Below, piece by piece: positions 35,882 through 50,917 of a stretch of 64,000 bases of DNA (position 1 is the stretch's first letter; each line of letters begins with the position of its first letter). The notes under the pieces are model-generated. The model worked only from the letters and a program-made list of their open reading frames with translations, ran no database searches and was not told where the DNA came from. This DNA comes from an uncultured Clostridia bacterium (GTDB taxonomy: Bacteria > Bacillota > Clostridia > Christensenellales > UBA1242): contig CAKVHA010000007.1 of the NCBI GenBank assembly GCA_934747775.1, forward strand, positions 1,437 through 65,436. Direction: 5' to 3'. A program made the translations under genes and the position numbers.

Positions 35882-35915
35882 AAAAAAAATAAAAGAGTAT
35901 GAAAAAACATACCCT
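35882..35915 (-). terminator. terminator closing the phage-like operon
   Basis: Minus strand agggtatg-tttttt-catactct, then ttttatttttttt, 12 nt after the holin stop. Confidence 0.6.
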
Positions 35916-35926
35916 TTTATGATTTA

Positions 35927-36196
35927 TTATTCGGTTTTGTTTGAGTCGTCACTATGTGTTTCATTGTTTGTATCCAATTGGTCGTTTGAGTTTGTATCAC
36001 TACCAGCGCCAGAGTCGGAATTTGTTACTATTCCCAAAACAATTAAAACACCACAAATTGACATAATTACATTTTCTATTGTTGTGCTTTCTATATGAAA
36101 ACCCAAGAGTTTGCCAATACTTTCCACCAAAACAACCACTGCACTACTTAGTGCCACCCAAAACGCATAGGTTTTAACTCTGTTCTTTAGATCCAT
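35927..36196 (-). CDS. holin, phage_holin_1 (phiLC3 / LL-H type)
   Basis: KNRVKTYAFWVALSSAVVVLVESIG...IMSICGVLIVLGIVTNSDSG follows the remembered family pattern NWK.R.KN..FWva..sa...L....G....i....l.lLv.lGIv.DPtt.G. Confidence 0.65.
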   Translation of the reverse strand: MDLKNRVKTYAFWVALSSAVVVLVESIGKLLGFHIESTTIENVIMSICGVLIVLGIVTNSDSGAGSDTNSNDQLDTNNETHSDDSNKTE

Positions 36197-36419
36197 CTTG
36201 CTGCTCCACAGGCTTCAGTTTTTCAAGTTCTATTTTAATTTCTTCCACATCATCTTTAATTTCGGTTACAACTCTTAACGAGTTTCCAAGCGCGTCTATG
36301 GTTTTTTGATACTTCTCTTCGCGCTTTTTACTGTCTTTTAGTTGGAAAAACAACAATATTAAAAACAAAACCGCCCAAATGCCATTGCTAATGGCAAGGT
36401 TAAATATTTTCTCCCACAT
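36174..36419 (-). CDS. BhlA/UviB-family holin-like protein
   Basis: NGIWAVLFLILLFFQLKDSKKREEKYQKTIDAL parallels SPbeta BhlA as remembered (QGPFAVLFCWLLFYVMKTSKERESKLYNQIDSQ). Single N-terminal TM helix plus a coiled-coil tail. Confidence 0.65.
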   Translation of the reverse strand: MWEKIFNLAISNGIWAVLFLILLFFQLKDSKKREEKYQKTIDALGNSLRVVTEIKDDVEEIKIELEKLKPVEQQDGSKEQS

Positions 36420-37101
36420 TTATTACATACCTTTTAATAATTTCATTATTTTTTGCCAATTCTGCTTGGCTAGTAGGTAAATCGCTTAAAAAATTATTAA
36501 CGCAAGCCTTTGCTCTTTCTATTTTGTAATCATTAACAACAGTTTCGCTATACTCATCACCAAATGTAGGAACACATTCCATAATGTCAATATTATCATA
36601 ATTTTCCTTAATGCTTAAAAATTGGTTTTGGTAATCTAGCTCGCTATTCTTCACTTCATCATCTACAACTTTGCACTTTTTATCAACTTCCAAAATTAAT
36701 TTGTTTAAGTCGTCCAGTTCGCTTACATATTTTACAGCATTACTTAAATCAAAATCGGATATCGCCTTGTCTTTGCAAATTTCCAATGACCCTTTCTTTA
36801 TTAGCAACTTTTCACGAGTCACATTTACATCATTCAAACTTTTTTCAATTTCGTTTGCTTTATCCACTGAAAAAGTTGTTTTGCAAAACTTTGGCACATC
36901 GTTTGAAATGTTAAGTTTTTTAATAACATTACAAACCTTATTTAATTTATTTTCAAACATAGATTTTTCAATTGCATCATATGCAGTTTTATTAAAATCA
37001 TCTGTCATAGCACATTTCATATAACCTAATCCACCTTTTTCAAAAAAATTTTTCATTTTATATTTTTCAATAATTCTAAATGTTTGTTCAACCATAACCA
37101 C
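36400..37101 (-). CDS. hypothetical virion-associated protein, coiled-coil rich (233 aa; start may be the ATG at 37095)
   Basis: ORF inside the structural operon. Heptad-like Lys/Glu/Asn-rich sequence. No family recognised. Confidence 0.45.
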   Translation of the reverse strand: MVMVEQTFRIIEKYKMKNFFEKGGLGYMKCAMTDDFNKTAYDAIEKSMFENKLNKVCNVIKKLNISNDVPKFCKTTFSVDKANEIEKSLNDVNVTREKLLIKKGSLEICKDKAISDFDLSNAVKYVSELDDLNKLILEVDKKCKVVDDEVKNSELDYQNQFLSIKENYDNIDIMECVPTFGDEYSETVVNDYKIERAKACVNNFLSDLPTSQAELAKNNEIIKRYVINVGENI

Positions 37102-37108
37102 CTAATGA

Positions 37109-38254
37109 TTAAATATCAATTGTTTTGTAAACATTACTGTTTCTAACCAAGTAAATTTTATCGTCAAAAACGAAGCCAGCAGAATAATTGTAATACATAT
37201 TTTGCGACACCTTGTTTATGCCAGTAGAAACTTGAAGTATAACAATTTCTACACTGTTTAAATCGCATAAAATTATGTACAAGTTTCCGCCTACATAAAA
37301 AGCTGAAACATTTTTTGCATCCGATAAAATAGAATAAACAGGCATATTGAATGGTGACGCCATATTTAAATTTACATCAACGACCAAAACATTATTTTCA
37401 CCCTTGGCTATAAACTTACTTGCTGGCGCATCGCCATTAATTGTTTTAACTTCGCTGATAGTGTAGTTTTTTAAACTCTCCACAACACTTGTTGACGATA
37501 CAGTCATATCACTGGCTATAGTAGCAACATATGTTTTACCCTTTGAAACAAACACTACATAATAGTTTATACTTGCCACAGGAACAACACACGCACTCAT
37601 TGTATCCAATTCTGTCACAACAACTTCCAAATTCGATGTTTGATTTTTTAGATACAATTTATTGTTTTTCGCATATAAAATTAGCAAATTTTCTTTTTTA
37701 GAATTTGCGTTATAATTATACGCAATATCAAAGTATTTGACACTATTATTATACTTTATGTCACAAAAGCCACTCAAAAGGTTTGATACACCCGAATAAG
37801 ACTTCACTTCACCCAATATCGCAGAAATTGAGTTTTCATTATATGTTAACAAAAATTCCTGTGGTTTGATATCTACTTTTCCACACAGAGATATGTTTAT
37901 ATTCTTAATATTTTGACCGCTTTTAATAATGAAAATTTCCAACACATCTTCACCAGAAACATTAATAAATTCGTTTACAAAAACAAAACTAGAAAATGTT
38001 TCGTTAAACACATTTGTGCCATTTATCTTTATAGTAACTTGCGCATTAGTGGAAACATATGCGGAAATATTTAACATAACCACATCACTTTGCGACATTA
38101 ATTTAAGTTCTTTATAAAAATTTCCGTCAGTGCAATTATAATGAAAATTTACTTTTTTATCTTCAAAAATCGTGTCGTTTTCTTCCAGATTTTTTCTAAC
38201 TAATTTTTGAGTATTATCATACACATAGTCAAAAGCTGAATTATTCATAAACAC
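37109..38254 (-). CDS. hypothetical beta-rich protein, putative tail/receptor-binding component
   Basis: Position distal to the head genes. Repeated strand-turn-strand segments (NKLYLKNQTSN, GKTYVATIASD, GNLYIILCDLN, DKIYLVRNSNVYK). Confidence 0.4.
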   Translation of the reverse strand: MFMNNSAFDYVYDNTQKLVRKNLEENDTIFEDKKVNFHYNCTDGNFYKELKLMSQSDVVMLNISAYVSTNAQVTIKINGTNVFNETFSSFVFVNEFINVSGEDVLEIFIIKSGQNIKNINISLCGKVDIKPQEFLLTYNENSISAILGEVKSYSGVSNLLSGFCDIKYNNSVKYFDIAYNYNANSKKENLLILYAKNNKLYLKNQTSNLEVVVTELDTMSACVVPVASINYYVVFVSKGKTYVATIASDMTVSSTSVVESLKNYTISEVKTINGDAPASKFIAKGENNVLVVDVNLNMASPFNMPVYSILSDAKNVSAFYVGGNLYIILCDLNSVEIVILQVSTGINKVSQNMYYNYSAGFVFDDKIYLVRNSNVYKTIDI

Positions 38255-39713
38255 CTACCAGAAGTTTTGCTTCACTTATATGTGCTGTTGCAGTTTCGCA
38301 CTCAATTGTTAAATTAAACTTTTTACCTTTTACATTTACAGGTATTTCTTGCAATGTGTTTTTACCGCTTACTTTTATTGTTTTAAACTTGTCATCATAT
38401 CCCACTTTTACCGTAATATTAGTGGCGGTTTTAATAAATAATTTTTTACATATTTTTGTTTTGTTTGGTAGTGATGCGTCTTTGTAATATGTTTGCCACA
38501 TCTTTTTTACTGGGTTATCTGTTGCATATTCACCAGTAAAATTTAGTTCTCTAATAGAGCTTGTACCAAGTTTGTACGACACACACAAAACCAAGTTTGT
38601 TTTGTATCCCATAAGCATAGATAAATCGTGCAAAACGATTCCCCTATTTACCAGCACTCTTTCATTATCCAAATCAACACATAAAACTGTATCATTAGGA
38701 TAATAATTGTTACCTTGAGCACCAATATTTAAACCGTCGCCAAACTCCATAGCGCACGCAACATAATAATATCCATTTATATAAACAGCTTTTGCACCTT
38801 CATTGGTTAATGTTTTAAACAATCGATTAATTTTTAAATCGAGCTTTTTTACCTTCAAACCATTAAGAGTATAAACACCATCTTGACTCATAAACACCAA
38901 ACTTGTTCCCGCTTGAACAATTGTATTTCTTAGAATTATCTTTGTTCCATTAAAAACTGGCTCTAATGTGATTTGTTTTTTGCCTGTGTAATTTACAAGC
39001 CTATAAATTCCGTATTCACAAAATATATATAGATAATCATCATAACTTACAAGTTTAACAATATTGCCAAGTTCCGAAGGAATTGTTATTGTTTTCATTT
39101 GCGAAAGATTAGCTATAATGTTGTGCGGATTTAGATCATTACAATAATACACAACACGTTTAATGTCTGTGTTTTTCACAACAAACACAAAGCCAGCGTG
39201 CGAAACCACATCATAAATTCTATTTTCTGTACTTACGTTATATGTAGTAATATTATAGTTATCGTCAAAAACACAAAACTTACCTTCAGCAGAAAACAAA
39301 AGGTAATTAACATAGTTATAGGTGTAGTTTATAGTAATTGGTCTAACAGCAAACTGCGTAATTGAAGTATAACCTTCTTCGCTTAATGCTTTTAAATAAC
39401 ATCGTTTTAATGTGTATGTGCTAGCATCTAAAACAAGCATTATTGTTTCTTTTTTGCTTAGTGATGAAAACGAGTAAAATTCAAGTGGTTTGTTGTAATC
39501 AAATTCTTTTTCATTAGCAACAGTTCCGCTTGTTTGAATTGTGAATTTCTTTACACCAAGACCTTGTGTTAACACCCCATTAAAATAATTAAAATTATAT
39601 CCATTACAAGCACCTTCGCCATTAATGGTTTTTCCGTCATCATAATTTATTCCTTTAGAAAAATCTGAAAAATCTAAAATTTTTTCTAAGGTGGAAAATG
39701 TTTTTTTAGCCAT
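38241..39713 (-). CDS. hypothetical beta-propeller-like protein, putative tail hub/nozzle
   Basis: 490 aa with blade-like repeats (GKFCVFDDNYN, GFVFVVKNTD, DYLYIFCEYGIYRL, TSLVFMSQDGVYTL, GYYYVACAMEFGDG). Its size and position after a 194-aa ORF recall podovirus adaptor + nozzle pairs. Confidence 0.4.
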   Translation of the reverse strand: MAKKTFSTLEKILDFSDFSKGINYDDGKTINGEGACNGYNFNYFNGVLTQGLGVKKFTIQTSGTVANEKEFDYNKPLEFYSFSSLSKKETIMLVLDASTYTLKRCYLKALSEEGYTSITQFAVRPITINYTYNYVNYLLFSAEGKFCVFDDNYNITTYNVSTENRIYDVVSHAGFVFVVKNTDIKRVVYYCNDLNPHNIIANLSQMKTITIPSELGNIVKLVSYDDYLYIFCEYGIYRLVNYTGKKQITLEPVFNGTKIILRNTIVQAGTSLVFMSQDGVYTLNGLKVKKLDLKINRLFKTLTNEGAKAVYINGYYYVACAMEFGDGLNIGAQGNNYYPNDTVLCVDLDNERVLVNRGIVLHDLSMLMGYKTNLVLCVSYKLGTSSIRELNFTGEYATDNPVKKMWQTYYKDASLPNKTKICKKLFIKTATNITVKVGYDDKFKTIKVSGKNTLQEIPVNVKGKKFNLTIECETATAHISEAKLLVGVYE

Positions 39714-39716
39714 AGA

Positions 39717-40301
39717 CTACTCCCACCTTCTACGTTTTAAATTAGCACTATGACATATCTTTTTTGCATTGTTTTTTACATTTTCTATTTCAGTTTCAAA
39801 TTTGTTTTGCCATACATTATATTCATCAATATTACCTTTTACAAACATATATTCCGAAACAACACCATACACAAATATCCTTTCGCTTACACCGATTGGA
39901 AATGTCGTAATATTGTCATTAATTGTCACACCTTTTGGCAAATATGCGTACTTTATGACAATATCGCATTTGTTTGTGACAATACCGCTAGGTTTTAGTG
40001 TGTATTTCAAAACTTCATTTTTTGTGTTTTTTACGCTTATAATATTAAAAATTTGTAAAGTTGATATTTTTGAATAAGGCAAAACATCATACGTGTTATT
40101 AATTTGAAATGTGTCAATCAAATTAAAATAATTTGTTGCAATGTTTTGTTGAACAAGATTTATACAATCTATTATAATATCTCGTTCTAATATTTCTTCG
40201 CTAGTTAATGTTATTGTTGCATCATTAGATGTTATCCTACTATACAGGTCTACATTTTGTAATATTTCTAATACTTTTCTTATAATACTTTTTACTTCCA
40301 T
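39717..40301 (-). CDS. hypothetical protein, putative head-tail adaptor (by position and size only)
   Basis: 194-aa ORF between the capsid-proximal genes and the beta-propeller-like gene. Confidence 0.35.
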   Translation of the reverse strand: MEVKSIIRKVLEILQNVDLYSRITSNDATITLTSEEILERDIIIDCINLVQQNIATNYFNLIDTFQINNTYDVLPYSKISTLQIFNIISVKNTKNEVLKYTLKPSGIVTNKCDIVIKYAYLPKGVTINDNITTFPIGVSERIFVYGVVSEYMFVKGNIDEYNVWQNKFETEIENVKNNAKKICHSANLKRRRWE

Positions 40302-40313
40302 TTTTTCTCCTTT

Positions 40314-40685
40314 TTACATCCATACACTTTTAAATACGTTTAGTGGATCGTTTGATTTTTTATTAGAGTAATCTAACAATTTTGTTGTTTTATATTCATT
40401 TTCACTTTTAACTTTTTCTAACATTTTTAACTTAATTTTTTCATTATGTTTATCAATTTTTTCAATACTATTATCGTTTTGATATATGTTTTTTAGTGTA
40501 TAATTTATTACTCTACCATCTAGCGAATTATATGGAAAAGTTAATATATAACTTAAACTACCATAATTGCTGCTATGTAATTCAAACTTTTTTGTGGACA
40601 AATTATATACAACATAAAAACTATTGTTGATTTGTTTTAATCTAGAAATTACATCAAACACATTGTCGTTAATTTTAATTTTCAT
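40314..40685 (-). CDS. hypothetical protein (123 aa) downstream of the capsid gene
   Basis: ORF with an AGGAGA SD. No family recognised. Confidence 0.45.
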   Translation of the reverse strand: MKIKINDNVFDVISRLKQINNSFYVVYNLSTKKFELHSSNYGSLSYILTFPYNSLDGRVINYTLKNIYQNDNSIEKIDKHNEKIKLKMLEKVKSENEYKTTKLLDYSNKKSNDPLNVFKSVWM

Positions 40686-40703
40686 TCAATCTCCTAAAAA
40701 ATT

Positions 40704-40730
40704 TAGAGGGTGGTAAGACCCCACCCTCTA
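40704..40730 (-). terminator. GC-rich hairpin plus short T-run immediately after the capsid gene (partial terminator or mRNA stabiliser)
   Basis: tagagggtgg-N7-ccaccctcta, a perfect 10-bp stem. On the minus strand it is followed by aaatttttt and then the SD of the next gene. Confidence 0.6.
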
Positions 40731-40741
40731 ACTATTACAAA

Positions 40742-41926
40742 CTAAGATAGCGTAATGCCACTTATTCTTACTTGACCATATGGTGCCGAACAAATTAAGT
40801 CGCCATATTTTACAAGTGTTGCATTGTAAGCTGCATAACCAGCTTTTTGAGTTAAGATGCTTCCGTTTTCATCACACATCCATTCCCAATCGCATAATTG
40901 ATGGAATACGAAATCGTTTGTGTTTAGCAAGTACATTTTTCCTTTATCAACTAGTCTATCGGAAAGAAGTGGAGTTCCATAGAAGTCATACGCTTTAAAG
41001 CCACCCTCAATTTCCATTGTTTGAACAGGCTTATTAGCAGTAATTAAAAGACCTTGATATTTTCTTCTAACCGCTGGATCGCAAACAATAAAGTTAACTG
41101 GATTTCCTGAATTTGCTTCGGCAATATCCATTTGTTCAATAATTGCAAGTTCGCTAATTGCAGCACCTAATGTTTTACTTACGCCACTAACAAAAGGGTT
41201 TGCAGATTTTGTTAAACCATAAACCGAAGTAACAGATGAATCAAACAAAGCATCAATACCAGTGATTTCGTTGTTTAGTGAACCGTGGACAACAAAGTAC
41301 ATAGATCCTTCTGCAACATCGGTTAATGAATTTTCTTTATCAAAAGTAATTTTGTTTGTAGCTCTATCTACCGATAAAACTGTAAAGCCACTACCGCCAG
41401 TAGGAATAGTGCCATTGCTTCCATCACAAACATCTAAAACCATACCCTCCAAAATGCCTTGTGCGTTGTTTACCGTTAATGTTTTCTTGTCGGTGCTAAT
41501 GCCACAAATCTCACTAATATATCCTTTGCCATTGCCGTACAACATACGAGCCATATTAAAGCTGCTTGCTTCAATTAAGCGTTCCATTTCATCGTTTAGC
41601 AAATTAACAAAAGCACCTGCACTGTTTTGACTTGCTCTAATTGCCTTGTCTGAAATTTCAATTTTGCCGTAAAGGTTTTTAAGAGTGCTTGTTAGGTTTA
41701 CATATTTTGTGTTGCCAGTTGCAGGAAGTTCGCCAGTTTCGCTAGTAGCAACAATTCCGCCGTTTATCCCAATAGGTGCTAACACTTTAATTTCTTTACC
41801 ATAAACGCCCTTTGTTGATTGTTTTATTTGAGCGAAAAATGGATTTGTTTTTAAATTAAGCATATTGCTTAATACTCCAAGATACACTGTTTTTAGTGCA
41901 CTGTTTGCTGTAGTAAAATCTACCAT
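40742..41926 (-). CDS. major capsid protein (putative)
   Basis: 394 aa, directly after a scaffold-like gene and the portal. Followed by a strong hairpin. The composition is typical of capsid proteins. This is a position-based call. Confidence 0.6.
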   Translation of the reverse strand: MVDFTTANSALKTVYLGVLSNMLNLKTNPFFAQIKQSTKGVYGKEIKVLAPIGINGGIVATSETGELPATGNTKYVNLTSTLKNLYGKIEISDKAIRASQNSAGAFVNLLNDEMERLIEASSFNMARMLYGNGKGYISEICGISTDKKTLTVNNAQGILEGMVLDVCDGSNGTIPTGGSGFTVLSVDRATNKITFDKENSLTDVAEGSMYFVVHGSLNNEITGIDALFDSSVTSVYGLTKSANPFVSGVSKTLGAAISELAIIEQMDIAEANSGNPVNFIVCDPAVRRKYQGLLITANKPVQTMEIEGGFKAYDFYGTPLLSDRLVDKGKMYLLNTNDFVFHQLCDWEWMCDENGSILTQKAGYAAYNATLVKYGDLICSAPYGQVRISGITLS

Positions 41927-41937
41927 AAAATTTTCTC

Positions 41938-42552
41938 CTATTTAAACATTTTTTTTGCCATTTCACCTGCTTCATATACATTTTTAGGAGCATTACAACC
42001 AGTCGCCACAACATTACCTTTTGTGCCGGTCATAAGAAATGGCGAGTTATTTAGTTCTTTTAAATAGTTATTTAAAATGGTTTCTTTTGCGGTTTTAGAT
42101 AACTTTTCCAAAAGAAACTCATCATTGCTTACATTATTTAAAAGACTTGTGTAGTTGTTTTCCAAAACCACTGCATATGCCATTTCTAGCGGGGATTTGC
42201 CATTTGCAATTTCCTTGTCACCAACAATAACATTTGCAATTTCTTTAGAAAACTCTTTAGCTTTTGGATTTTTTGTGAAAAAATCGTCAAGCTTTTGTTG
42301 CCAGCCGTCAGTTTCAAAAAACGGTGTGTTAGCATTGTCGTTTTTTTGCTTTGTTAGTTCGCTTAGCTGCTGGCATTTTTTTGTAAATTCAACCTGTAAA
42401 GCATTGTAAGAACTTAGCAAGCTTTCACTAGACTTGAATTTACCAAGTGGAGAGCCTTCCCTTAAGCCCGTACTTTCATTTTCAACATCCGCCGCTGCGG
42501 TTAAAGTGGCTTCGTGGTTTGGTTGTTCTCCAATATTTTTAATGTTTTCCAT
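41938..42552 (-). CDS. scaffolding protein (putative)
   Basis: 204-aa helical, acidic/Lys-rich protein between the portal and capsid genes. Confidence 0.5.
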   Translation of the reverse strand: MENIKNIGEQPNHEATLTAAADVENESTGLREGSPLGKFKSSESLLSSYNALQVEFTKKCQQLSELTKQKNDNANTPFFETDGWQQKLDDFFTKNPKAKEFSKEIANVIVGDKEIANGKSPLEMAYAVVLENNYTSLLNNVSNDEFLLEKLSKTAKETILNNYLKELNNSPFLMTGTKGNVVATGCNAPKNVYEAGEMAKKMFK

Positions 42553-42554
42553 AA

Positions 42555-44438
42555 TTATTCTTCCTTTTCACTTTGTTCTTTTTTTAATAATTCTTTATGT
42601 TTTTTAATGTGGTCTACAATCACTTTTTTTAATTCGTCTTTATTTGCCAACTTATTAAACTCCTTGCCCAAAACATAACAAATGTGCTCGTTTATATGCA
42701 AAGCATGGTCGTCTATTTCACTAGGCTCTTCCATAACGCCTTTTTCAATAAGGTCATAATTTTCAACATCAGCTCTGTTTATTTGCAATGTTTGTGCGTC
42801 TTGCATTGTTTCCCACATTCCAAAACCTAACTGCTCCAAAAGTTTTTGACGAATTGAGTTTTTTAAAATGCCGTTTTCGTCGTTAAATAGTCCAGACTTA
42901 AATAGGTCAAAAATCATGTTTCTCCTTTGGGCTATGGTTTGGTTTATTTCATTTTCGGTTTCAAACACAACATCTTCACTAGTAATGTTGGAGTTGCTCC
43001 AATGCAACATTTCTACCTTGCCATTTTCATCTACTAGCCTAGATATGTGCGGCAAAATGGCAAACTGCTTGTAAAGTCTTAAAATGTGCTTTGCAATTTC
43101 TTTGCAAGCATTCTTAATTTGGTCGGAAACCGTAGACAATTTTGCTTCGTCTTGTTCCACTAAAAGTTCTAGCGCAACGCCACTAATGTTTCCATTTGAA
43201 GCAATTGTGGAATTTAGTAAATCAGATACGCCGCCAATATTTGTAAACTCTTCTAGCAAATACTCTTCTTCTTTTTCTAAACTGGTTGGAACCGCTTCGT
43301 TTGGCAAAATTTTAGGCAAATTTGCGCCTTGACGATACACTAGTACTTTCCCTGGTGACAAGCCTTCATCTTCTAGACTCTCTATATCCACCGAGCCATC
43401 TTCAACAGCCAAAACACCCAAACTTAGTCTATTTAAAAATTCGTGTTTGCGGTTTTTAACTGCATTGAATGCGCGTTGAATAGGAATAAGTCGTTCAATA
43501 ACACTTGTTCCCCAAAAACTATTTGGAGTAATGCTAGATGTTTGCTTTATAAACGGATAACCACGCTTACCATCAATGGTATTAACATATGGCAATTCAC
43601 CAATATACACAAGTTTGTCGCCAGCAATAATAGTGAGTTTTCCATTTGGATTTTTTGTTGTTGGGCGCTCATATTTTTCAATAACAAGCGCTTGATTTTG
43701 AGATTTTTGTTTGGTCACACCAAAACTTGTTGCGCCATATCCCAAACCGCCCAAATTTGAAATATTACCCATGGAATATGTGCTAAATTCGCCGCCGCTA
43801 ACATCTACGCCCCACATATCTTTAATATCTTCAATGTTCATAGCGCGAGCGTGAATTATGCTTTTTTGGTCTTCAATTTGTGATATCGCACAATTTTCTG
43901 GAAATATTTCATATGGCGAAACTACCGCAATATCAACTTCGCCTTCGCAAATATTTCTGCCAGTTTCGTCGCGTTTTACAACACGTCCTTTTGTGTTGTC
44001 CCATCCAACCTTATAAAAACTGGTTCCACAAATTTCACTCCACATTGTACCTTCGTTTAAAATTCTGCTTAAATTTAGGTCAAAAGATACGCTTTTAAGC
44101 AAGTTTTTACTTACTTTTGCACACCCAACATCGTGCGGATCATCGGAAAATGGCAAAACCGTAAGCGACGGTCTAACGCGGTTTAATTTTGAGAGCCTTA
44201 GTTCAATAATTGGCGCAATGTGGTTAAAAACTTCGCGTTCTTGCCAAAAATATTGCTTGTTTTCGTCTATCATTTCGTTTAGTCCGTTAATGTAACAATA
44301 TTGATTCCCCATTAAAAAATTAATATTAAGTCCCCACGCTGTTTCGTAGTTTTTCTTTTGTTGTTGACGCTCTTTAAAATCGTCTAAAATTTGTTGTACA
44401 ATTTGTTTTTCAATTTCAGTGTTCATATTTTTTTCCAT
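42555..44438 (-). CDS. portal protein (putative)
   Basis: 627 aa. It is the first large gene after the terminase, with an AAGGAG SD. Size and order fit a portal. Confidence 0.6.
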   Translation of the reverse strand: MEKNMNTEIEKQIVQQILDDFKERQQQKKNYETAWGLNINFLMGNQYCYINGLNEMIDENKQYFWQEREVFNHIAPIIELRLSKLNRVRPSLTVLPFSDDPHDVGCAKVSKNLLKSVSFDLNLSRILNEGTMWSEICGTSFYKVGWDNTKGRVVKRDETGRNICEGEVDIAVVSPYEIFPENCAISQIEDQKSIIHARAMNIEDIKDMWGVDVSGGEFSTYSMGNISNLGGLGYGATSFGVTKQKSQNQALVIEKYERPTTKNPNGKLTIIAGDKLVYIGELPYVNTIDGKRGYPFIKQTSSITPNSFWGTSVIERLIPIQRAFNAVKNRKHEFLNRLSLGVLAVEDGSVDIESLEDEGLSPGKVLVYRQGANLPKILPNEAVPTSLEKEEEYLLEEFTNIGGVSDLLNSTIASNGNISGVALELLVEQDEAKLSTVSDQIKNACKEIAKHILRLYKQFAILPHISRLVDENGKVEMLHWSNSNITSEDVVFETENEINQTIAQRRNMIFDLFKSGLFNDENGILKNSIRQKLLEQLGFGMWETMQDAQTLQINRADVENYDLIEKGVMEEPSEIDDHALHINEHICYVLGKEFNKLANKDELKKVIVDHIKKHKELLKKEQSEKEE

Positions 44439-44450
44439 TAATTATTCTCC

Positions 44451-44657
44451 TTATTTTTTAAATTTATTTAAAATATTTTGCGGGCTTTTTGGGGCTACAA
44501 ACTTGCCCATTTCAAAATACAGATTTTTAAAACATTCTTCACACAAAAACAGCTTTATTGTTGCCTTTTTCTTTACTACATCAATTTCATAATCGGACAA
44601 ATTTTTATTGCATTCGCCCGAATTGCAAACAATGTTTTTCCTAGTTTTTTTTATCAT
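44451..44657 (-). CDS. small zinc-ribbon protein (68 aa)
   Basis: CNSGEC ... CEEC cysteine pairs. Overlaps the upstream gene by 17 nt. Confidence 0.45.
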   Translation of the reverse strand: MIKKTRKNIVCNSGECNKNLSDYEIDVVKKKATIKLFLCEECFKNLYFEMGKFVAPKSPQNILNKFKK

Positions 44658-44937
44658 TTTCTTCCGCCTTTTTAAGTAGTTCTATTAGTCGTGTTCGCTC
44701 CGCTTCTAGTTTAGATAAATCCATATCTTTAAATTCGTCGTCAGCCGCATCTCGTTCCATCATTATTTCAATCGCGCGAATTTCTGGCGGATAATACTTT
44801 TTGTTGGTTTTTCGTTTTAATAGCGTAAAAGCCTTGTCCACCATCCCGTACTCTTCGGCAACATCTTCTTCTGAAAACCCAGTGGCTCTATCGTACAACG
44901 CTTTTTCTATTCGCTTTTGTTTTTCATCTTGTTCCAT
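44641..44937 (-). CDS. small acidic protein with a terminase-small-subunit-like C-terminal motif
   Basis: KRKTNKKYYPPEIRAIEIMMERD resembles the K...PPD..A..FWLKNR segment I remember from Firmicute phage TerS proteins. There is no N-terminal HTH. It lies after TerL, not before it. Confidence 0.35.
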   Translation of the reverse strand: MEQDEKQKRIEKALYDRATGFSEEDVAEEYGMVDKAFTLLKRKTNKKYYPPEIRAIEIMMERDAADDEFKDMDLSKLEAERTRLIELLKKAEENDKKN

Positions 44938-46363
44938 TTCGCCGCTGCAACAACCTCCTATACATTTTTTCTTTATCTTTTTCTATAATGCTTTTTTCCA
45001 CAACCTTAACACCTTCTGGTTTTGTCATAATGTAATATCTAAGTTCGTCTAGCGAGTGGTCGTCTTTTTTTATTGGATTTTCGCCACTGCCCCAAAAATA
45101 ACTTTTAATTTCCCTAATCATATTTGTGCAAGTTCTAAATATAAACAGTCGTGACCTACCGCAAGCATTTTTAAAGTAACTTTTCACCCTATTTATTCCG
45201 CTAAACAAATCTTTATTTACGTGCGGATTAACCATAATGCCATAGTCCGCAAAAAGTTCTGTTACGCTTTTTTCACTTGCCAGCGTTTTCTGATTTGCCG
45301 CGCTATCTATTAGTGCTTCAATGTAGCCCATGTGCGACTTTTTCCAACCCAGCCGCTCCGATATAGCTTTAATACAGTTTGCGTGATACTCAATGTTTCT
45401 GCCTGCTTCATAGTGCTCAGCTATAACATACACATTACCATCATAATCGGTTGCGTACCAGTGTGCCGAAAGCGGATTGTTAAGCCCTGGATCGATGCTA
45501 ATTGTGTCGTACCACTCTTTGGGAACATTAAATGGATCTATAACATTTACATTTTCATCAAATTCGTTGTAAACCATTCCGCCATTTCCCACAAAAAGCC
45601 CGTATCTACGCGACTTTAATTCATCCGCACTAATCGATGCCGAAAACGCTTCTACTTCCTTTTTATTTAAAAAAGGATTGTCCGCCCATTCCATATGAAT
45701 ATGCCAAACTTCACTATCGTTTAACTCGTTTAAAAATATGGTGTTATACACCCACGTAAGACCTTTTAGCGGTGTCATTGTTCCAAAAATTTCGCCCGAT
45801 TTATCTAGTACACGCATTTTACATTCCAAATACACATCAAAAGGCGGCTCTTCATCAAACCACACAAAATCTAGGCTTGTTCCTTGAAATTTTTCACGAC
45901 CTTGGTCACAAGTTTTAAATGAAATACGGCTTAATCCACCAAAAACATTTTTTATTATTATGGTGTCAATTACCCCCATATCCAGATTGCTTCGTTTGCC
46001 GCTAAGCATAACTATGTCTTCTATCCAATCTTTATTTAAGTAATACAAAATTTTACTTTGCGCCACATCGCGCTGCACTTGTGTAGATAGCGACACAACC
46101 CAACCTTCCACATTCGGCTTATTTTGTTTGTATGGGTGAATTCCACGCGCAAGCCATATTGCTTCCACCGCACCACACTCGGTTTTGCCACTGCGGTTTC
46201 CGCCAAACACCCAGCGATTTTTTTTGGTACATTTGTGAAACATCAGCTGTTTTTTATGCACTTTTTCGCCTGTGTTGTATTCAAAAATGCGGTTGTTGTT
46301 TTTGTAGTTTTCAATTGCAATATTAACCTTATTTAGCCGCTTTTTAATTTCTTCAAGTTGCAT
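44924..46363 (-). CDS. terminase large subunit
   Basis: Walker A FGGNRSGKTE and Walker B LDFVWFDEEP. The C-terminal nuclease-like half includes ISIDPG and a DDHSLDELRY motif. 479 aa with an AAGGAG SD. Confidence 0.85.
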   Translation of the reverse strand: MQLEEIKKRLNKVNIAIENYKNNNRIFEYNTGEKVHKKQLMFHKCTKKNRWVFGGNRSGKTECGAVEAIWLARGIHPYKQNKPNVEGWVVSLSTQVQRDVAQSKILYYLNKDWIEDIVMLSGKRSNLDMGVIDTIIIKNVFGGLSRISFKTCDQGREKFQGTSLDFVWFDEEPPFDVYLECKMRVLDKSGEIFGTMTPLKGLTWVYNTIFLNELNDSEVWHIHMEWADNPFLNKKEVEAFSASISADELKSRRYGLFVGNGGMVYNEFDENVNVIDPFNVPKEWYDTISIDPGLNNPLSAHWYATDYDGNVYVIAEHYEAGRNIEYHANCIKAISERLGWKKSHMGYIEALIDSAANQKTLASEKSVTELFADYGIMVNPHVNKDLFSGINRVKSYFKNACGRSRLFIFRTCTNMIREIKSYFWGSGENPIKKDDHSLDELRYYIMTKPEGVKVVEKSIIEKDKEKMYRRLLQRRNGTR

Positions 46364-46455
46364 TTATTCTCCTTTTTACAAAATTTATCAATTTTCTACA
46401 AAATACATAATTGCACGCATTTTGTTTATTTTTAAATTAGGTTTAAAATTAAAAT

Positions 46456-47190
46456 ATGAAAAGGTTTATTATATTAATTTCGGTGGTTTTATTCGCCGCT
46501 TTTGTTCCTATCACCCTTTGCGAAGATAATAGCTTTGCTATGATTATAAATGATTACACTTGTTTGTATCGCACACCCGAAGCCAACAACGATATAAAAA
46601 ACATAATATGTGTTATGGAAAGCACATATTATGTTGAAATACTTCATACTTACAATGAAGAATATTATAAAGTTAACTACAATGGCGTGAGTGGGTATGT
46701 TTTAAGAAAATGTGTTAAAAAGGTAAACGGAGCGCCAAATAATCCATACCCAAGCAATGTAAAATTAAAAACCGTTAACAACAATATTTATTTACGCACA
46801 ACCCCAGCAAAAACCAACAACACGCTTAGCATTATCCCTGCCAGCACCGAAAGTTTGGAATTTGTGGGATATGTTTATGGCGAACAAGTTGACGATTTTA
46901 GGGACAACATATGGTACTATGTAAAATACTTAGACATCTACGGATATGTGTATGGTGAGTACATTGCCGAAATTTCCGCAATTCCAAAAAACATAGAACA
47001 ACTAAACTTTGTAAACGACGATTATGTTCAAGTTAAAAACCCTCTTTCAAATGGAACTTGCGCCATAATTGTAGGAGTTTTAACACTGCCTACAATGTTA
47101 ATTTTGCTACTACTTTATAAAAAACCAAAACCAAATAAAAAGTTTAAAGAACAAGTAATTGTTGTTAAAGAATACGACGAAAAACTTTAA
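46456..47190 (+). CDS. membrane-anchored protein with two SH3b-like domains
   Basis: Signal peptide, then two SH3_3-like segments (YYKVNYNGVSGYVLRKCV; WYYVKYLDIYGYVYGEYI), a C-terminal TM helix (CAIIVGVLTLPTMLILLLLY) and a Lys-rich tail. Confidence 0.6.
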   Translation: MKRFIILISVVLFAAFVPITLCEDNSFAMIINDYTCLYRTPEANNDIKNIICVMESTYYVEILHTYNEEYYKVNYNGVSGYVLRKCVKKVNGAPNNPYPSNVKLKTVNNNIYLRTTPAKTNNTLSIIPASTESLEFVGYVYGEQVDDFRDNIWYYVKYLDIYGYVYGEYIAEISAIPKNIEQLNFVNDDYVQVKNPLSNGTCAIIVGVLTLPTMLILLLLYKKPKPNKKFKEQVIVVKEYDEKL

Positions 47191-47723
47191 TAAACCATAT
47201 TAAATTCTCTAATTACATTTTTAAAGAATTTGTATTTAATAATGTCGTCATCAAAATCGCATTTTACTTCTTTACAATTAGCTTTGTATAAATGCTTTAA
47301 CCAATTTTCACCGCAAAACATTTCTTCCAATCTCTCCTTGGAATACCCCATTCCCATAAGAGTTTTTGTAAAAATGTCAAGCGCGCTATTTTTCACCCTA
47401 AAAAATGTTCGGTCGCTAATATGCATAATGTTTGCAATGTCTTCATTTTTTACGCCATCAATATAGCTTAGCGCAAGCACCTTTTTATATTTTAATGGCA
47501 TATTAGAAAGCACATCTTCAACCAGCACTTTAAGATTAATTAGGTTTATTTTTCTGTCGGTTAGCTGCATCACCGTGTTTGCGCAGTCATACGCACTATT
47601 AAACCTTGCGTTGTTGTAAAAAGCCGACGCAATGCTCTTTTTTACAACCAAATCATCTATACTATTGCTTAGTGCCTCCAAGTATTTATAAACCGATAAA
47701 ATTGTTTTGCTCCAGTTTCTCAT
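47187..47723 (-). CDS. sigma-70 region-4-like HTH regulator (phage late-activator-like)
   Basis: PLKYKKVLALSYIDGVKNEDIANIMHISDRTFFRVKNSALDIF matches the region-4 pattern L....r.vl.l.y..g.s..EIA..l.iS.rT......A. 178 aa with a GGAGG SD. Confidence 0.55.
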   Translation of the reverse strand: MRNWSKTILSVYKYLEALSNSIDDLVVKKSIASAFYNNARFNSAYDCANTVMQLTDRKINLINLKVLVEDVLSNMPLKYKKVLALSYIDGVKNEDIANIMHISDRTFFRVKNSALDIFTKTLMGMGYSKERLEEMFCGENWLKHLYKANCKEVKCDFDDDIIKYKFFKNVIREFNMVY

Positions 47724-47749
47724 TTTTCCTCCAAATTTTCATTTTCCAT

Positions 47750-47779
47750 ATTATAATGTACAAAATTTTGTTTTGTCAA
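47750..47779 (-). promoter_or_regulatory. near-consensus sigma-A-type promoter of the regulator gene
   Basis: Minus strand TTGACA (47779..47774), 18-nt spacer, TATAAT (47755..47750). Confidence 0.5.
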
Positions 47780-47843
47780 AGGGTTGTGCCATATTTTTGT
47801 AAAAAATGTTATATTTTGTACAAAAATGTCAAATTTTGTCAAA
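47757..47843. repeat. two copies of a TGTACAAAA ... TTTTGTCAAA imperfect inverted repeat, 60 bp apart
   Basis: Copy A is 47757..47780 and overlaps the -35 and spacer of the regulator promoter. Copy B is 47817..47843, with an extra ATGTCAAA. Confidence 0.6.
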
Positions 47844-47858
47844 TTGTTCTATATTTTT

Positions 47859-47872
47859 AGAACATCTGTTCG
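47859..47872. promoter_or_regulatory. LexA (Cheo) box-like palindrome
   Basis: AGAACATCTGTTCG compared with the Gram-positive consensus CGAAC-N4-GTTCG: 9 of 10 fixed positions, and the GAAC-N4-GTTC core is perfect. Lies in the divergent region between the regulator and the 951-aa gene. Confidence 0.4.
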
Positions 47873-48061
47873 AATTATATGCCGTTAAATGTGACAACTG
47901 TGTGTCATAATTAAAAATTAGTATTAGTCAAACTGCACAAAGTTTTTTGTTTTGGACTAAATCAACAAAAAAAATTTTTTAAGCAATTTTATTTGATTTA
48001 TTGATTACTATTTTTTATAATATAATTATTATTATATATACTACTAAAAACGGAGAAACTT

Positions 48062-50917
48062 ATGAAAAAATTTAGGTTGGTTTTGTTTGGAATAATATTG
48101 TGTGCATTGTGTTTAATGCCACAAATGTTTGTAAGTGCAAGTGTTAGCGAAGTAGACACCTACTATCCTAGCGGAATTGAAGACTATGTTGACCTTAACA
48201 ACATTAGTTGTTTTGAAATTAGCGGCAACAAAATATTTTACGCCACTAGCAACAACGAAGTTTTTGAATATGATAAAACCACACGAAAAACATTAAAACT
48301 TAACACAGGCACAACAAGTACAGTTAAAAACATTAATGTTGCTGGCGAATATGTTGTTGTGTTTGCTGGAAACAATTCCTTTGCTTTTAATCTTAATGAC
48401 ACATCAAAAAATGCCGATGTTTGCACTATTAGCAGTTTTAATGATGCAATTGTAAAATATGTAAACAACAAGTATTATTATATTTACACCACTGCAAACG
48501 CAGGCTCATCGGTTGAACTTAATGTTGAAATTTATAACGACCTAACAAAAAATCAAAAAACCACTAAAAAGTTTAGCAACTTAGAATATGTGGACGGCGC
48601 ACAAAAATATTTGCTTGCTATGAACGAAAACTTTATTATTGCTGTTACAACATCGCGTGACAAAATGTATGTTTTTGAAACAAGCCAACTAAGTAGCACC
48701 GAAACCACACTTACCCCACTTAATAACGCAAACGCAGAAAAAAACAATTTTGACCTAATAACCGCCGCAACTTCGGACACCATTATAAACACAAAAAGCG
48801 TGGATATTTACAACAATCATATGTTTGCGTGCTTTGATATTGGCGAAAACAGCAGCAAAACAAAGATGATAATTGAAGCCACAATTGATAGCGAAAGCGG
48901 AACAGCAGCCACAATTTCGCGTGATAATCTTTCTGGTGGCGAAAACTTAATAGACTTTATGATTGTTAAAGACGGAAATTTTTATGGTTACAGCAAAACT
49001 AATTGCGACATCACACAATTTTCGTACGGCAACCCTATGGTTAAAATTAAAGCCATTATTGCTGGGAAAGGCAACAACATAGGTCGTTTTAAAGGCGTAA
49101 CAAGTGTAACATATAAAGCTAATACGCTTTACGTAACCGACAGCGGAAACAGCCGTACACAAGATGTTAGCACCACCGCTGTTCACGAACAAGTTTATCC
49201 AAGCGGATACTCTTGCAGCGAAGTTGTTGTAGATAAAAACAACCAAACATACTTGGTGTTATTTAATAGCCAAAATTCGTTTTTGTATAAAAACTATAGA
49301 AACGGCGTAACACCAATTGCAACAGTAAACAACGAACAAGTTGTTAGCGTAGACATAAACATAGACGGTTCTATTTTTATGCTAACCGAAAACAATATTT
49401 ACTTATACAAAAACAACACCACAGCGGTTTCCCAATCTATTTCACTAGCGAATAACAACAGCAAAATTAGAGTTGGCATAGCCTACCCTACAATTTCGCC
49501 AACCAACATAAATAGCGTAAAAACTGTTAGCGCTTTGGCAGCTGCTGCAAATTTATATGTAAGTTCCAACAACACAATTTATAAAATCAGCACTCAGTCG
49601 GGCAATATTTCCGATGTCCATATGACCTACGACAGCAACATTGTTGACTTTAGAATAACCACTAGCGGCAAAGTTGTGGCATTGCTTGAAAACGGAAATA
49701 TTGTTTCCAGTAATTGGGGCGATACCAGCGAGAGCGAAACTTACAAAACACTAAGCGGATTTACTAGCCACAAATGCTTTGATATTGACCCAGTAAGCGG
49801 ATACATTTATATTTACAACGACAACCGCAGTGCCTTTGAAATTATAAAAGACGAAAATTTTGTTGACGCTGGAAACTTTGGCACATATTATGACACAAAC
49901 AACGCTAGCCTTTCGGCAGGTGTTTGGAAATATGGAACATTCCAAATTGGAACACTTATTTACGACCACCCATACTATATTGGAAACTACACTAAAATCA
50001 CCGCAAGCGGTTTAAACTGCATTGTAATTAGCACGCCAGTAAAAACAAACACTAGCGGCGAAATTGAATATGGTGAATTTACACTTGTGGGATATTTTGA
50101 TAATGGCGTTTTAAAAACTGGCTACATCGAAACAAGCAAGTTTGCAAATGGTATTCAAACAATTGGTATAACTAACACCGAGTACACTCTTCGCTCCACA
50201 AACAAGAATGTTAGTGTGTATAAATACCCTACAATCTGCCCTATTAACAGCAAAGCAAATAATGTTGTTTATGCTACTCTAAACCAAGGCGAAACCATTA
50301 CAACAATAGGCAGATACCCTATAAAACTAGATGAAAACAGCACAAACGACTTTTATATTGTAACCTACAAAAATGCAGGTGGAAGCGTTACAGGATACGG
50401 ATATATTTACTCCACTGATGTTGTAAAGAACTCCAATATTTCAAAAACAATAAAAACCAACGCTAAAATAAACATTTTTGACAATTCAAAAACCGTTACT
50501 GTTTACACCCAACCAGATGAAACTTCGGGCGTTGTGACATACTTAACTCACGACTACAAAGTAAACGCAATAGATTACAACAAACAAAATCCGTTTACAA
50601 AAATCACCTTTTTAGATGCCGACGGACAAGAACGCGAAGGATATATTTCAACAAAATACATTAAACTTAACGGACTTTCTAGAAATATGATTATTGCAAT
50701 TGTTTTAATTGCTGTAGACGCTGTAATTGCTGTTGTTGTAATAGTTTTCTTTAATATTTATCGCAAAAAACAAAAAGCAGAAGCCGAAAAAGAAAATTTA
50801 GAACATAATAGCATTGACGCGGAAATTAAACAACAACCTAAATCTGTTAAGACCAAGGAAAAACAAACCAAAAAACAAATAGATACAGATAAAAACAACA
50901 ATGATACTGATAACTAA
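48062..50917 (+). CDS. large membrane-anchored surface protein with beta-propeller (NHL-like) repeats and C-terminal SH3b-like domains
   Basis: Signal peptide, blade-like repeats (LYVTDSGNSRTQ, NNIYLYKNNTT, NTIYKISTQSG), two or more SH3b-like segments (TGYGYIYSTDV; EREGYISTKYIKL), then the TM helix IIAIVLIAVDAVIAVVVIVFF and a Lys/Glu-rich tail. Confidence 0.6.
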   Translation: MKKFRLVLFGIILCALCLMPQMFVSASVSEVDTYYPSGIEDYVDLNNISCFEISGNKIFYATSNNEVFEYDKTTRKTLKLNTGTTSTVKNINVAGEYVVVFAGNNSFAFNLNDTSKNADVCTISSFNDAIVKYVNNKYYYIYTTANAGSSVELNVEIYNDLTKNQKTTKKFSNLEYVDGAQKYLLAMNENFIIAVTTSRDKMYVFETSQLSSTETTLTPLNNANAEKNNFDLITAATSDTIINTKSVDIYNNHMFACFDIGENSSKTKMIIEATIDSESGTAATISRDNLSGGENLIDFMIVKDGNFYGYSKTNCDITQFSYGNPMVKIKAIIAGKGNNIGRFKGVTSVTYKANTLYVTDSGNSRTQDVSTTAVHEQVYPSGYSCSEVVVDKNNQTYLVLFNSQNSFLYKNYRNGVTPIATVNNEQVVSVDINIDGSIFMLTENNIYLYKNNTTAVSQSISLANNNSKIRVGIAYPTISPTNINSVKTVSALAAAANLYVSSNNTIYKISTQSGNISDVHMTYDSNIVDFRITTSGKVVALLENGNIVSSNWGDTSESETYKTLSGFTSHKCFDIDPVSGYIYIYNDNRSAFEIIKDENFVDAGNFGTYYDTNNASLSAGVWKYGTFQIGTLIYDHPYYIGNYTKITASGLNCIVISTPVKTNTSGEIEYGEFTLVGYFDNGVLKTGYIETSKFANGIQTIGITNTEYTLRSTNKNVSVYKYPTICPINSKANNVVYATLNQGETITTIGRYPIKLDENSTNDFYIVTYKNAGGSVTGYGYIYSTDVVKNSNISKTIKTNAKINIFDNSKTVTVYTQPDETSGVVTYLTHDYKVNAIDYNKQNPFTKITFLDADGQEREGYISTKYIKLNGLSRNMIIAIVLIAVDAVIAVVVIVFFNIYRKKQKAEAEKENLEHNSIDAEIKQQPKSVKTKEKQTKKQIDTDKNNNDTDN

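Follow-up and report, generated by a model that had tools for sequence, protein, structure and literature searches.

A candidate domesticated, podovirus-type gene transfer agent-like locus with predicted SOS control in Christensenellales-type gut Clostridia

We analyzed a 64,000-nucleotide stretch of DNA from an uncultured Clostridia bacterium (contig CAKVHA010000007.1 of assembly GCA_934747775.1; this whole stretch is called the window, and all positions are counted from its first letter), and in particular a compact block of phage-type genes that lies within it. The open reading frame (ORF) map and family searches place this particle locus at positions 35,889-47,907 on the minus strand (~12 kb), with the gene order late activator, large terminase (TerL), truncated small terminase (TerS), portal, scaffold-like protein, major capsid protein (MCP), hairpin, adaptor, nozzle, variable beta-rich protein, DUF7934 protein and two holins. 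We consider it likely, with a probability of about 0.7, that the locus is a domesticated, chromosomally fixed, SU10/P22-like phage-derived element of the gene transfer agent (GTA) type, known here from its genes. Such an element would most likely make small particles under host control while being unable to propagate itself; both the particles and their DNA content are predictions. A preliminary description of this DNA had placed the block at 35927-47723. All of its ORFs were found at the positions that it gave, and the gene overlaps and short gaps also agree, but the control region reaches to ~47907 and a conserved opposite-strand SH3b gene (46456-47190) lies within the block. The preliminary description had offered three readings, namely a GTA-like or domesticated particle, a satellite and a cryptic podophage remnant. 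Our analysis favors the first of these and leaves the other two unsupported, because the element occupies the same site in different species, co-diverges with the neighboring gene rnj, has the GC content of its hosts, is under purifying selection and has no mobility genes adjoining it.

Relatives of the MCP were found in at least 136 GTDB species-representative genomes, and from these matching species a comparative set of 80 loci was kept (individual loci are referred to below by handles such as L001). All 80 of the retrieved genomes came from uncultured gut Clostridia, many of them labelled Christensenella, Christensenellales or Catabacter. MCP identity among these relatives was 43-69% and the GC content of the locus ranged from 25% to 61%, i.e. 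the element has taken on the GC content of its host. Coverage across the kept loci was full-length, with ORF sizes typically near those of the window. Pairwise identities of the portal protein in 16 genomes were strongly correlated with those of rnj (r = 0.84), as to a lesser degree were those of the MCP (r = 0.55; Mantel p <= 0.0005). Comparison of the element with that of a strain that is 98-99% identical at the DNA level, from a Hadza gut metagenome, revealed 96 synonymous and 22 non-synonymous differences and hence a ratio of non-synonymous to synonymous substitution rates (dN/dS) of ~0.06 overall. Values for single genes ranged from 0 to 0.38, the highest of them arising from only 2-5 differences, and the core packaging, capsid, adaptor and nozzle genes had values of 0.00-0.10, as against 0.02-0.04 for the flanking rnj, U32 peptidase and sigma genes. 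Purifying selection on the element is comparable to that on the flanking housekeeping genes, and, as in GTAs, the element has been inherited vertically across the host clade under this selection. The suggestion in the preliminary description that the block is not a decaying remnant is borne out by the full-length ORFs in the 80 kept loci and by the low overall dN/dS.

Gene order was conserved across the 80 loci, i.e. activator, opposite-strand SH3b gene, TerL, an optional large gene, TerS-like gene, portal, 204-aa gene and MCP, followed by the 123-aa gene, adaptor, nozzle, a variable gene, DUF7934 gene and holins. The chromosomal site was conserved as well. At least 20 loci have the element followed by a gene for a 316-aa membrane protein, rnj, an O-methyltransferase gene and a U32 peptidase gene; wherever the flanks were readable the neighbors were housekeeping genes, usually rnj; and the element keeps the same place next to rnj even between species that share only 43-50% identity in the MCP. 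In four further species-level lineages the layout was confirmed by independently made gene calls carrying Pfam labels. The preliminary description had proposed that the interval from rnj to parC be compared across related genomes, with conservation of the site under purifying selection indicating domestication; this is the outcome that was obtained, together with co-divergence with rnj. It had also named the presence of integrase, replication or lysis modules beside the block in relatives as a sign that this copy is a deletion remnant; no relative with readable flanks carries integrase, replication or lysogeny genes there.

Phage-type particle genes that reside in the chromosome without integration, excision or replication functions are typical of GTAs, and this is the situation that was found. 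Searches with Pfam, PHROGs and NCBIfam detected no integrase, repressor, excisionase, replication, tape measure, tube, sheath or endolysin families in the block, and the 10 kb to each side of the queried element gene in five relatives with independent annotation were likewise free of integrase, repressor, replication, long-tail and endolysin families, so that the absence of lysogeny, replication, long-tail and endolysin genes noted in the preliminary description was upheld. Nor were integrase, repressor or replication genes present in the window flanks. These consist of core genes, as had been described: rnj is on one side, an SSB-like gene, a deacetylase gene and parC are on the other, and the remainder of the window is housekeeping (including hrcA-grpE-dnaK-dnaJ, lepA, rpoD, dnaG, RNase P RNA, a mur ligase gene, ddl and tsaE/B), which fills ~30 kb on one side of the block and 16 kb on the other. 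The closest tRNA gene is 14 kb from the block and none adjoins it. Candidate att-like direct repeats flanking the block were rejected as they were chance-level AT-rich matches only. The genes that recur after the holins in other lineages are likewise host genes, i.e. polA, tsaB/E and those for a GNAT acetyltransferase, a pyrimidine nucleoside phosphorylase and a BspA-type leucine-rich repeat protein. When the 50,697 phage records were searched with the MCP, the best match was just 27% identical and there was no related complete phage genome, so identity to phage MCPs in general is at most 27%; the closest IMG/VR matches were the same chromosomal block.

The packaging and head genes all lie on the minus strand, as do the other features described below unless stated otherwise. 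TerL (44924-46363) matched Terminase_6N (3e-15), Terminase_6C and PHROG 2, with a median identity of 66% over 41-42 loci and a dN/dS of 0.02. The TerS-like fragment that the preliminary description had placed after TerL is a 98-aa protein (44641-44937) whose family does match the small-terminase PHROG 309 (29 of 31 members, best 8e-9), through its C-terminal part only: the window copy aligns to positions 196-244 of 319 in the single alignment seen. No PDB sequence match and no recognizable DNA-binding domain were found for it, and its gene showed five synonymous and no non-synonymous differences from the sister strain. The C-terminal-only match is consistent with loss of the DNA-binding domain of TerS; the neighboring 68-aa Cys-rich protein could in principle bind DNA. 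This Zn-ribbon-like protein (44451-44657; CxxxxC...CxxC pattern in the translation) had no family match in Pfam or PHROGs, and L081, L100 and L102 likewise have a gene for 67-71 aa at this position, whereas L101 does not. The portal-sized gene of the preliminary description (42555-44438) encodes a P22/SU10-type portal protein (P22_portal 1.6e-16, SU10_portal, PHROG 156 1.5e-31), which was found in 74 loci. Between portal and MCP lies a 204-aa protein (41938-42552; in 73 loci; dN/dS 0.06) with no match in family searches or PDB, which we regard as a putative scaffold by its position.

The capsid-sized gene (40742-41926) proved to encode an MCP of a podovirus (SU10-like) HK97-fold family, with matches to PHROG 14242 (5e-54) and NCBIfam NF033394 (capsid_maj_Podo; 7e-63). 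NF033394 was matched by 41/41 of the MCP family members tested, some relatives carry PF17236 (SU10_MCP), and the MCP was full-length in the 80 kept loci (ORFs of 303-442 aa). The strong hairpin reported after the capsid gene is present as a GC-rich 11-bp stem followed by a T run (40703-40731) and is likely to be an intra-operon attenuator or terminator. Stems of at least 7 bp were found 3' of the MCP in 52 of 81 loci; for other genes the count was 6-15 of 41-74 loci. The pattern fits attenuation by which capsid expression would be held above tail expression, as a control of stoichiometry. A conserved 123-aa protein (40314-40685; orthologues in 56 loci; no match to known families or in the PDB), which may be an accessory of the head or neck, is encoded after the hairpin.

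The preliminary description had guessed, from protein sizes, that the 194-aa and 490-aa ORFs are the adaptor and the hub or nozzle of a short tail, and Foldseek searches with predicted structures support both assignments. The AlphaFold2 model of the 194-aa protein (39717-40301), built with 61 homologues, had a pLDDT of 85 and its best PDB match was the adaptor of KHP30 (5e-8, TM-score 0.61), followed by those of Pa223, SU10, N4 and T7 (gp11); GTA neck proteins gave very weak Foldseek matches only. The adaptor was found in 71 loci. Its identity rests on the structure model, as sequence-only annotation gave nothing useful: Pfam, PHROGs, NCBIfam and PDB profile searches were unhelpful, and alignment with SU10 gp16 and gp11 by hhalign failed. 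For the 490-aa protein (38241-39713), a beta-propeller tail nozzle (hub) of the P22 gp10/SU10 gp17 class, the model was built on six sequences and the top 13 Foldseek matches were podovirus chains of the tail nozzle or hub type (Pa223 at 4e-15, SU10 gp17, P22 tail-complex chains and a T7 portal-tail chain), and T7 gp12 appeared by name at rank 40. The sole sequence match of the nozzle family profile in the whole PDB was SU10 gp17 (E 0.0023), and direct comparison of the two by hhalign gave a probability of 66% (E 5.5e-5). The weak match of the 490-aa protein to a PHROG labelled 'amidase' was considered as a clue to a lysin and rejected, since the region concerned is the nozzle beta-propeller.

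The gene after the nozzle occupies a variable slot. In the window it encodes a 381-aa beta-rich protein (37109-38254) with no family match, which is a candidate receptor-binding or fibre protein. Its family is confined to the closest relatives, and elsewhere the slot holds three other unrelated families or nothing. Similarly, in many lineages a protein of 650-1,120 aa with weak, sub-threshold GLUG/M26_N matches is encoded between TerL and the TerS-like gene. Swapping of genes at these two places is the behavior expected of receptor-binding modules. The 233-aa coiled-coil protein that follows (36400-37101) belongs to the Pfam family DUF7934, which was matched by 26 of 29 family members (best 5.5e-48); its gene is directly upstream of the holins in 34 of 48 loci, and this position suggests that it is a tail needle or plug, or an ejection or lysis accessory. 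Comparison of the 233-aa protein with PDB sequences gave weak coiled-coil matches only, and, DUF7934 apart, no informative match for the 123-, 204- and 233-aa proteins came from Pfam, PHROGs, NCBIfam or PDB profile searches. The operon ends with the two holins of the preliminary description, both confirmed by family matches, i.e. a BhlA-family holin (36174-36419; Holin_BhlA 1.4e-16; found in 49-50 loci) and a Phage_holin_1-family holin (35927-36196; PF04531 2.6e-7, PHROG 297 1e-11). The terminator said to close the block is present as a terminator-like hairpin (35889-35920; 13-bp stem followed by a T run), and in 36 of 42 loci the last holin is likewise followed by a hairpin. What the element encodes is therefore a head with a minimal short tail.

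The motif TGTAAAAAGGAGAA(A/T)AAATG occurs at the starts of both the TerL and the adaptor genes (46342-46380 and 40280-40318), where it would be an extended ribosome-binding context or a repeated control element.

The members of the RinA/ArpU/DUF1492 class turn on the packaging and lysis operons of Gram-positive phages, and a putative member of this class is encoded upstream of TerL. This 178-aa protein (47187-47723) contains a sigma-70 region-4-type helix-turn-helix and matched Sigma70_r4_2 (2e-7), DUF1492 (1e-4), PHROG 36 (6.5e-13), PHROG 248 and PHROG 1740, as well as, weakly, ArpU. It had previously been described as a host-style regulator; the sigma-70 region-4 fold and these matches identify it instead as a phage-type late activator. 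Orthologues were found upstream of TerL in 23-24 loci by tblastn and blastp (dN/dS 0.11). Wherever the activator was detected, the SH3b gene lay between it and TerL on the opposite strand (dN/dS 0.09). In the window the SH3b gene (46456-47190, plus strand) encodes a 244-aa membrane protein with a signal or transmembrane segment, two SH3b cell-wall-binding domains (SH3_3) and a C-terminal transmembrane segment. Among structures of NlpC/P60 proteins and phage lysozymes, its family profile matched the SH3b parts alone and no catalytic domain. In many loci the SH3b gene starts a few bases past a conserved TATAAT-like hexamer (TATAATAA..ATGAAAAA on its own strand; 46364-46455 in the window), a position that suggests a very short or absent leader.

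The Firmicute LexA consensus is CGAACN4GTTCG. Upstream of the activator gene, where the preliminary description had reported a possible SOS box, lies a perfect GAAC-N4-GTTC, GAACAGATGTTC, at 47860-47871. This is the sole GAAC-N4-GTTC in the window, which alone is not significant as 35 of 100 shuffles also have one, but the box is conserved: it is exact in 16 of 24 orthologous regions and has one mismatch in five more, and it is located at -125 to -187 from the start of the regulator ORF in 20 of 21 cases (at -29 in L001). A predicted TATAAT -10-like hexamer (47874-47879) is directly upstream of the box, and the orthologous regions have TATAAT-like hexamers in the corresponding place. The -35 position of this predicted SOS promoter is spanned by an inverted repeat, TGACA-N6-TGTCA (47892-47907), a candidate operator that occurs once in the window compared with 0.05 expected occurrences. 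In 18 of the 24 orthologous regions the LexA-type box is preceded, at a distance of 34-37 nt, by an inverted repeat of the form TGACA-N5-8-TGTCA, as against 1 of 4800 shuffles; L002 carries GGACA..TGTCC, a symmetric variant. A consensus sigma-70 promoter-like site, TTGACA-18-TATAAT (47750-47779), which matches at 12 of 12 positions, is also present shortly before the regulator gene. We read these predicted sites as indicating that the regulator promoter would be repressed by LexA together with a second dimeric regulator; judged in silico, the combination of LexA box and palindrome upstream of the activator gene in 18 of 24 species points to the host regulatory control expected of a GTA.

These results suggest how the element might operate. 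DNA damage would lead to cleavage of LexA and so take it off its box at the conserved promoter that also bears the second, palindromic operator (the sites are present, and their binding is predicted), whereupon the 178-aa sigma-70 region-4 protein would be expressed and, if it acts here as its family suggests, would drive a single operon encoding TerL, a TerS that has probably lost its DNA-recognition part, portal, scaffold and MCP. The conserved hairpin after the MCP would lower expression of the adaptor, nozzle, swappable receptor-binding-type and DUF7934 genes. Procapsids would form from portal, scaffold-like protein and MCP; TerL, for want of a sequence-specific TerS, would fill these heads with arbitrary host DNA; and adaptor, nozzle, DUF7934 protein and a lineage-specific receptor-binding protein would complete the particle. 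The two holins would then time its release, with the wall-degrading enzyme being either encoded elsewhere or a host autolysin.

Several observations weigh against the interpretation of the locus as a domesticated GTA-like element, and account for the confidence that we place in it. The particles, the packaged DNA and its delivery to recipients are predictions made from the genes, and any roles given to the SH3b membrane protein and to the proteins of 123, 204, 233 and 381 aa are putative. The nozzle model is of moderate confidence (pLDDT 66). No endolysin is encoded at the locus in any lineage examined, which means that the unit is not self-sufficient for lysis as far as is visible and that 'self-contained', as the preliminary description had called it, was too strong. 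A candidate late-operon promoter motif (TTTTGTM / ATGTCT near the ribosome-binding site) recurs loosely and is too inconsistent to be claimed. A fifth annotated lineage, L102, retains the structural operon without TerL or rnj alongside. L105, a metagenomic sequence whose rnj is 54% identical, contains no element genes and no gene for the 316-aa protein in the 10 kb upstream of rnj. Finally, the link between the locus and the published packaging of DNA in Christensenellaceae, described below, is indirect and drawn from the literature only.

Two of these observations concern the distribution of the element. The rnj search of JGI metagenomes returned few close relatives: two with the element (L103 and L104, which are slightly closer than L105) and one without it. 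The sequence without it (L105, positions 1-10000) would represent an empty site, a loss of the element or its relocation. At L018/L102 (L102:3542-15621) the operon starts with a gene for an 803-aa protein, directly after host fab, lplA and NMN-transporter genes, and has no TerL, activator or SH3b gene nearby; the 803-aa protein has no Pfam family on record and groups with the large GLUG/M26_N-hinted genes. In nine other loci, too, the ~7 kb that precede the portal contain no TerL. Where TerL is missing, the genes for packaging and regulation may be unlinked, as in multi-locus GTAs, or lost.

All of the sequence evidence for domestication would apply equally to a particle that is selected for something other than gene transfer i.e. 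a PBSX-like killer or bacteriocin, or a damage-triggered device for altruistic lysis or DNA release, with the packaged DNA being incidental or undelivered. The predicted SOS control through a late activator parallels PBSX, for which the selected function is likewise debated, the BhlA holin family is tagged 'involved in bacteriocin production or immunity' by PHROGs, at least one lineage retains the structural operon without an adjoining TerL, and the same question has been left open for FpGTA, the GTA-like element of Faecalibacterium prausnitzii (PMC12946183). However, TerL, the TerS-like gene and portal are among the most constrained genes of the element (dN/dS 0-0.02), which argues that DNA packaging itself matters. 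Moreover, PBSX kills by means of a contractile tail, whereas the tail encoded here consists of a short adaptor and nozzle, and we know of no killing mechanism for tails of that type. We therefore regard a function other than gene transfer as unlikely.

The comparative evidence contradicts the remaining explanations, namely a remnant, a satellite and an active prophage. If the locus were the decaying remnant of a temperate podophage that has lost its lysogeny, replication and lysin modules and is now functionless, this would account for the missing integrase, replication and endolysin genes and for a compact module among core genes, but frameshifts, patchy presence and lineage-specific decay would be expected. 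Instead, the element is full-length in the 80 kept loci from at least 136 species despite their divergence in identity and GC content, with conserved site, gene order and regulatory architecture and a dN/dS of ~0.06, which makes such a remnant very improbable. We give as little credence to a capsid-forming phage satellite, i.e. an element resembling the capsid-forming phage-inducible chromosomal islands (PICIs), which makes its own heads and borrows other functions from a helper phage. Small size, a regulator of the late-activator type, and genes for terminase, portal, capsid and connector without a long tail would all suit a satellite. Against this, no integrase, AlpA or Stl-type regulator, replication or primase gene, att repeat or tRNA target was found; the element encodes its own adaptor and nozzle; its control is predicted to be by LexA and not by a helper phage; and it has a fixed chromosomal site and co-diverges with its host. 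Least probable of all is an active temperate short-tailed phage whose other modules lie beyond the window or were not recognized. The structural and lysis-timing modules do look functional, but housekeeping genes abut both ends of the element, in the window (for ~30 kb and 16 kb) and in distant relatives, the boundaries are the same in distant species, and, as described above, the phage records hold no related complete genome while the closest IMG/VR matches are this same chromosomal block.

A search of full texts brought up one paper that bears directly on this locus (PMC12946183, Nat Commun 2026; preprint 2024). It describes FpGTA, which its authors call the first podovirus-like GTA-like element. 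The preliminary description had known of no head plus short-tail GTA-like element in Firmicutes; one has thus since been described. FpGTA comprises a 10.5-kb operon encoding a TerS without DNA-binding domain, TerL, portal, a Prp-like protein, MCP, nozzle and a TolA-like protein, and a second operon 125 kb away encoding fibres, holin and endolysin; its capsids are ~40 nm and hold 8.4-8.9 kb of host DNA, and it is near-ubiquitous in the genus (PMC12946183). The present locus resembles FpGTA in being a compact chromosomal operon (~10.5 kb in FpGTA) in a member of the gut Clostridia without lysogeny and replication genes, in the order TerL, portal, small gene and MCP, with a nozzle and a coiled-coil ('TolA-like') protein further on (as far as the accession order in the proteomics table of that paper allows this to be judged), and in its TerS, of which the C-terminal part only is retained here. 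It differs in host order, in having the TerS-like gene after and not before TerL, and in having between portal and MCP a 204-aa protein without family match in place of the Prp-like gene. The holins are in the same operon here and no endolysin was found, whereas in FpGTA fibres, holin and endolysin are in the distant operon, and the SOS wiring predicted here from sites is not reported for FpGTA. The MCPs also differ: that of FpGTA (RCH50849.1) is named 'N4-gp56 family' by PGAP, whereas here 41/41 matched NF033394 and TIGR04387 was touched by only 1/41, with 13 bits compared to a cut-off of 60. As the MCPs fall in different NCBIfam families (FpGTA being compared by annotation only), orthology is unlikely and the present locus is probably a separate domestication.

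The same paper, in which virus-like particles from the gut were sequenced with long reads, reports that host fragments of ~4.1 and 6.3 kb are packaged in a GTA-like manner in the Christensenellaceae-assigned metagenome-assembled genomes HGM11616 and QANA01 sp019420265, with no locus named (PMC12946183). GTA heads are typically too small to hold the locus that encodes them, and these fragments compare with a locus of ~12 kb here, which is an obvious candidate, through an indirect link from the literature. A fuller version of our interpretation can accordingly be framed, which we advance tentatively and would, taken in all its parts, sooner bet against than for: the locus would be a second, independently domesticated podovirus-type GTA of gut Clostridia, present throughout Christensenellales-type bacteria, triggered by SOS through LexA and the late activator, and responsible for the 4-6 kb packaging in Christensenellaceae, with a swappable receptor slot and with its genes split in some lineages.

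More distant comparisons are with PBSX, RcGTA and the phages SU10 and P22. PBSX is induced by DNA damage, uses the sigma-like Xpf and packages ~13 kb of random host DNA. This packaging was re-confirmed in PMC12946183. Like PBSX and PBSX-like phibacins, the locus is a Firmicute chromosomal element unable to propagate, with induction by DNA damage predicted here, and it shares with PBSX the small sigma-like factor and a single long late operon running from terminase to holins. It differs in its short tail, where PBSX has a long contractile tail and kills non-immune cells, and in having no lysin and no Xre-type gene at the locus, where PBSX has its own amidase XlyA and an Xre repressor; Pfam and PHROGs searches found no sheath, tube, tape measure, amidase or Xre-type family. 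RcGTA is vertically inherited across an order-level clade under purifying selection, has a truncated TerS without sequence specificity, and is regulated by its host, with lysis genes that are partly unlinked. The present locus resembles it in vertical inheritance, purifying selection, truncated TerS, host regulation (here predicted) and a cluster that does not contain all of the lysis genes, but RcGTA is siphovirus-like, with tape measure and tail tube genes, is under the control of CtrA, GafA and quorum sensing, and has unrelated protein families. The portal, MCP, adaptor and nozzle belong to the same structural families as those of SU10 (Kuravirus) and P22, and SU10 too has a terminator after its capsid gene block. 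SU10, however, is virulent, has a genome of 77 kb and also carries genes for replication, internal ejection proteins, fibres and a lysin.

Some neighboring genes were considered as possible parts of the element. The gene for the 316-aa protein with multiple transmembrane segments that follows the holins was rejected and treated as host, because it stays beside rnj in L040, where an insertion parts it from the holins; ~4.7 kb separates the holins from this gene and rnj there (L040:14843-19575). Two genes beyond the activator, encoding a 951-aa SH3 surface protein and an SSB-like protein, were not counted since they are conserved in the nearest subclade only. The 951-aa predicted surface protein (48062-50917, plus strand) has a signal peptide, a long beta-rich region, SH3_3 and a C-terminal transmembrane segment with a Lys-rich tail, an architecture at its C-terminus that resembles that of the element's 244-aa SH3b protein. 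Its gene is divergent from the activator gene, with the LexA box in their common intergenic region, and tblastn found it in seven loci of the nearest subclade (L001, L002, L003, L005, L039, L062 and L078). The 223-aa SSB-family protein (51024-51695) has its SSB domain at residues 107-201, is 63-65% identical in relatives, may hold a second, divergent OB fold in its N-terminus, and is encoded next to the polysaccharide deacetylase gene and parC.

On the other side, the 400-nt gap between the 316-aa gene and rnj contains a 52-aa ORF (34602-34760) and a terminator-like hairpin (34690-34716), both on the minus strand; this region may be an rnj leader, and it had no Rfam match at gathering thresholds. 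The window also contains RNase P RNA (class A, 241 bits; 27515-27851, minus strand) and a single tRNA-Arg(CCT) (21420-21496, minus strand), neither of which adjoins the element. An exact-sequence look-up of the window ORFs at 57307-58341 and 26111-27475 returned no match.

Few GTA-like systems are known to us and, to our knowledge, before 2024-2026 none of them was short-tailed or came from gut commensals. Our best reading is that this is a previously undescribed, lineage-wide, SOS-wired podovirus-type GTA-like locus of Christensenellales-type gut bacteria. Christensenellaceae are heritable members of the gut community, are linked to host health and are hard to manipulate genetically, and the locus provides a concrete, order-wide candidate for the GTA-like packaging that has been reported in them without a locus. 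Its control logic (LexA box, second operator, late activator and single operon) is readable and so directly testable, and suggests that horizontal gene flow among these bacteria could increase upon DNA damage, e.g. by antibiotics or inflammation. Should the locus and FpGTA prove to have separate ancestries, the domestication of small podovirus particles would be recurrent and not a one-off event; and if the locus is indeed a second GTA of this type, gut anaerobes would have acquired short-tailed GTAs repeatedly, and genes may regularly move among them by this route.

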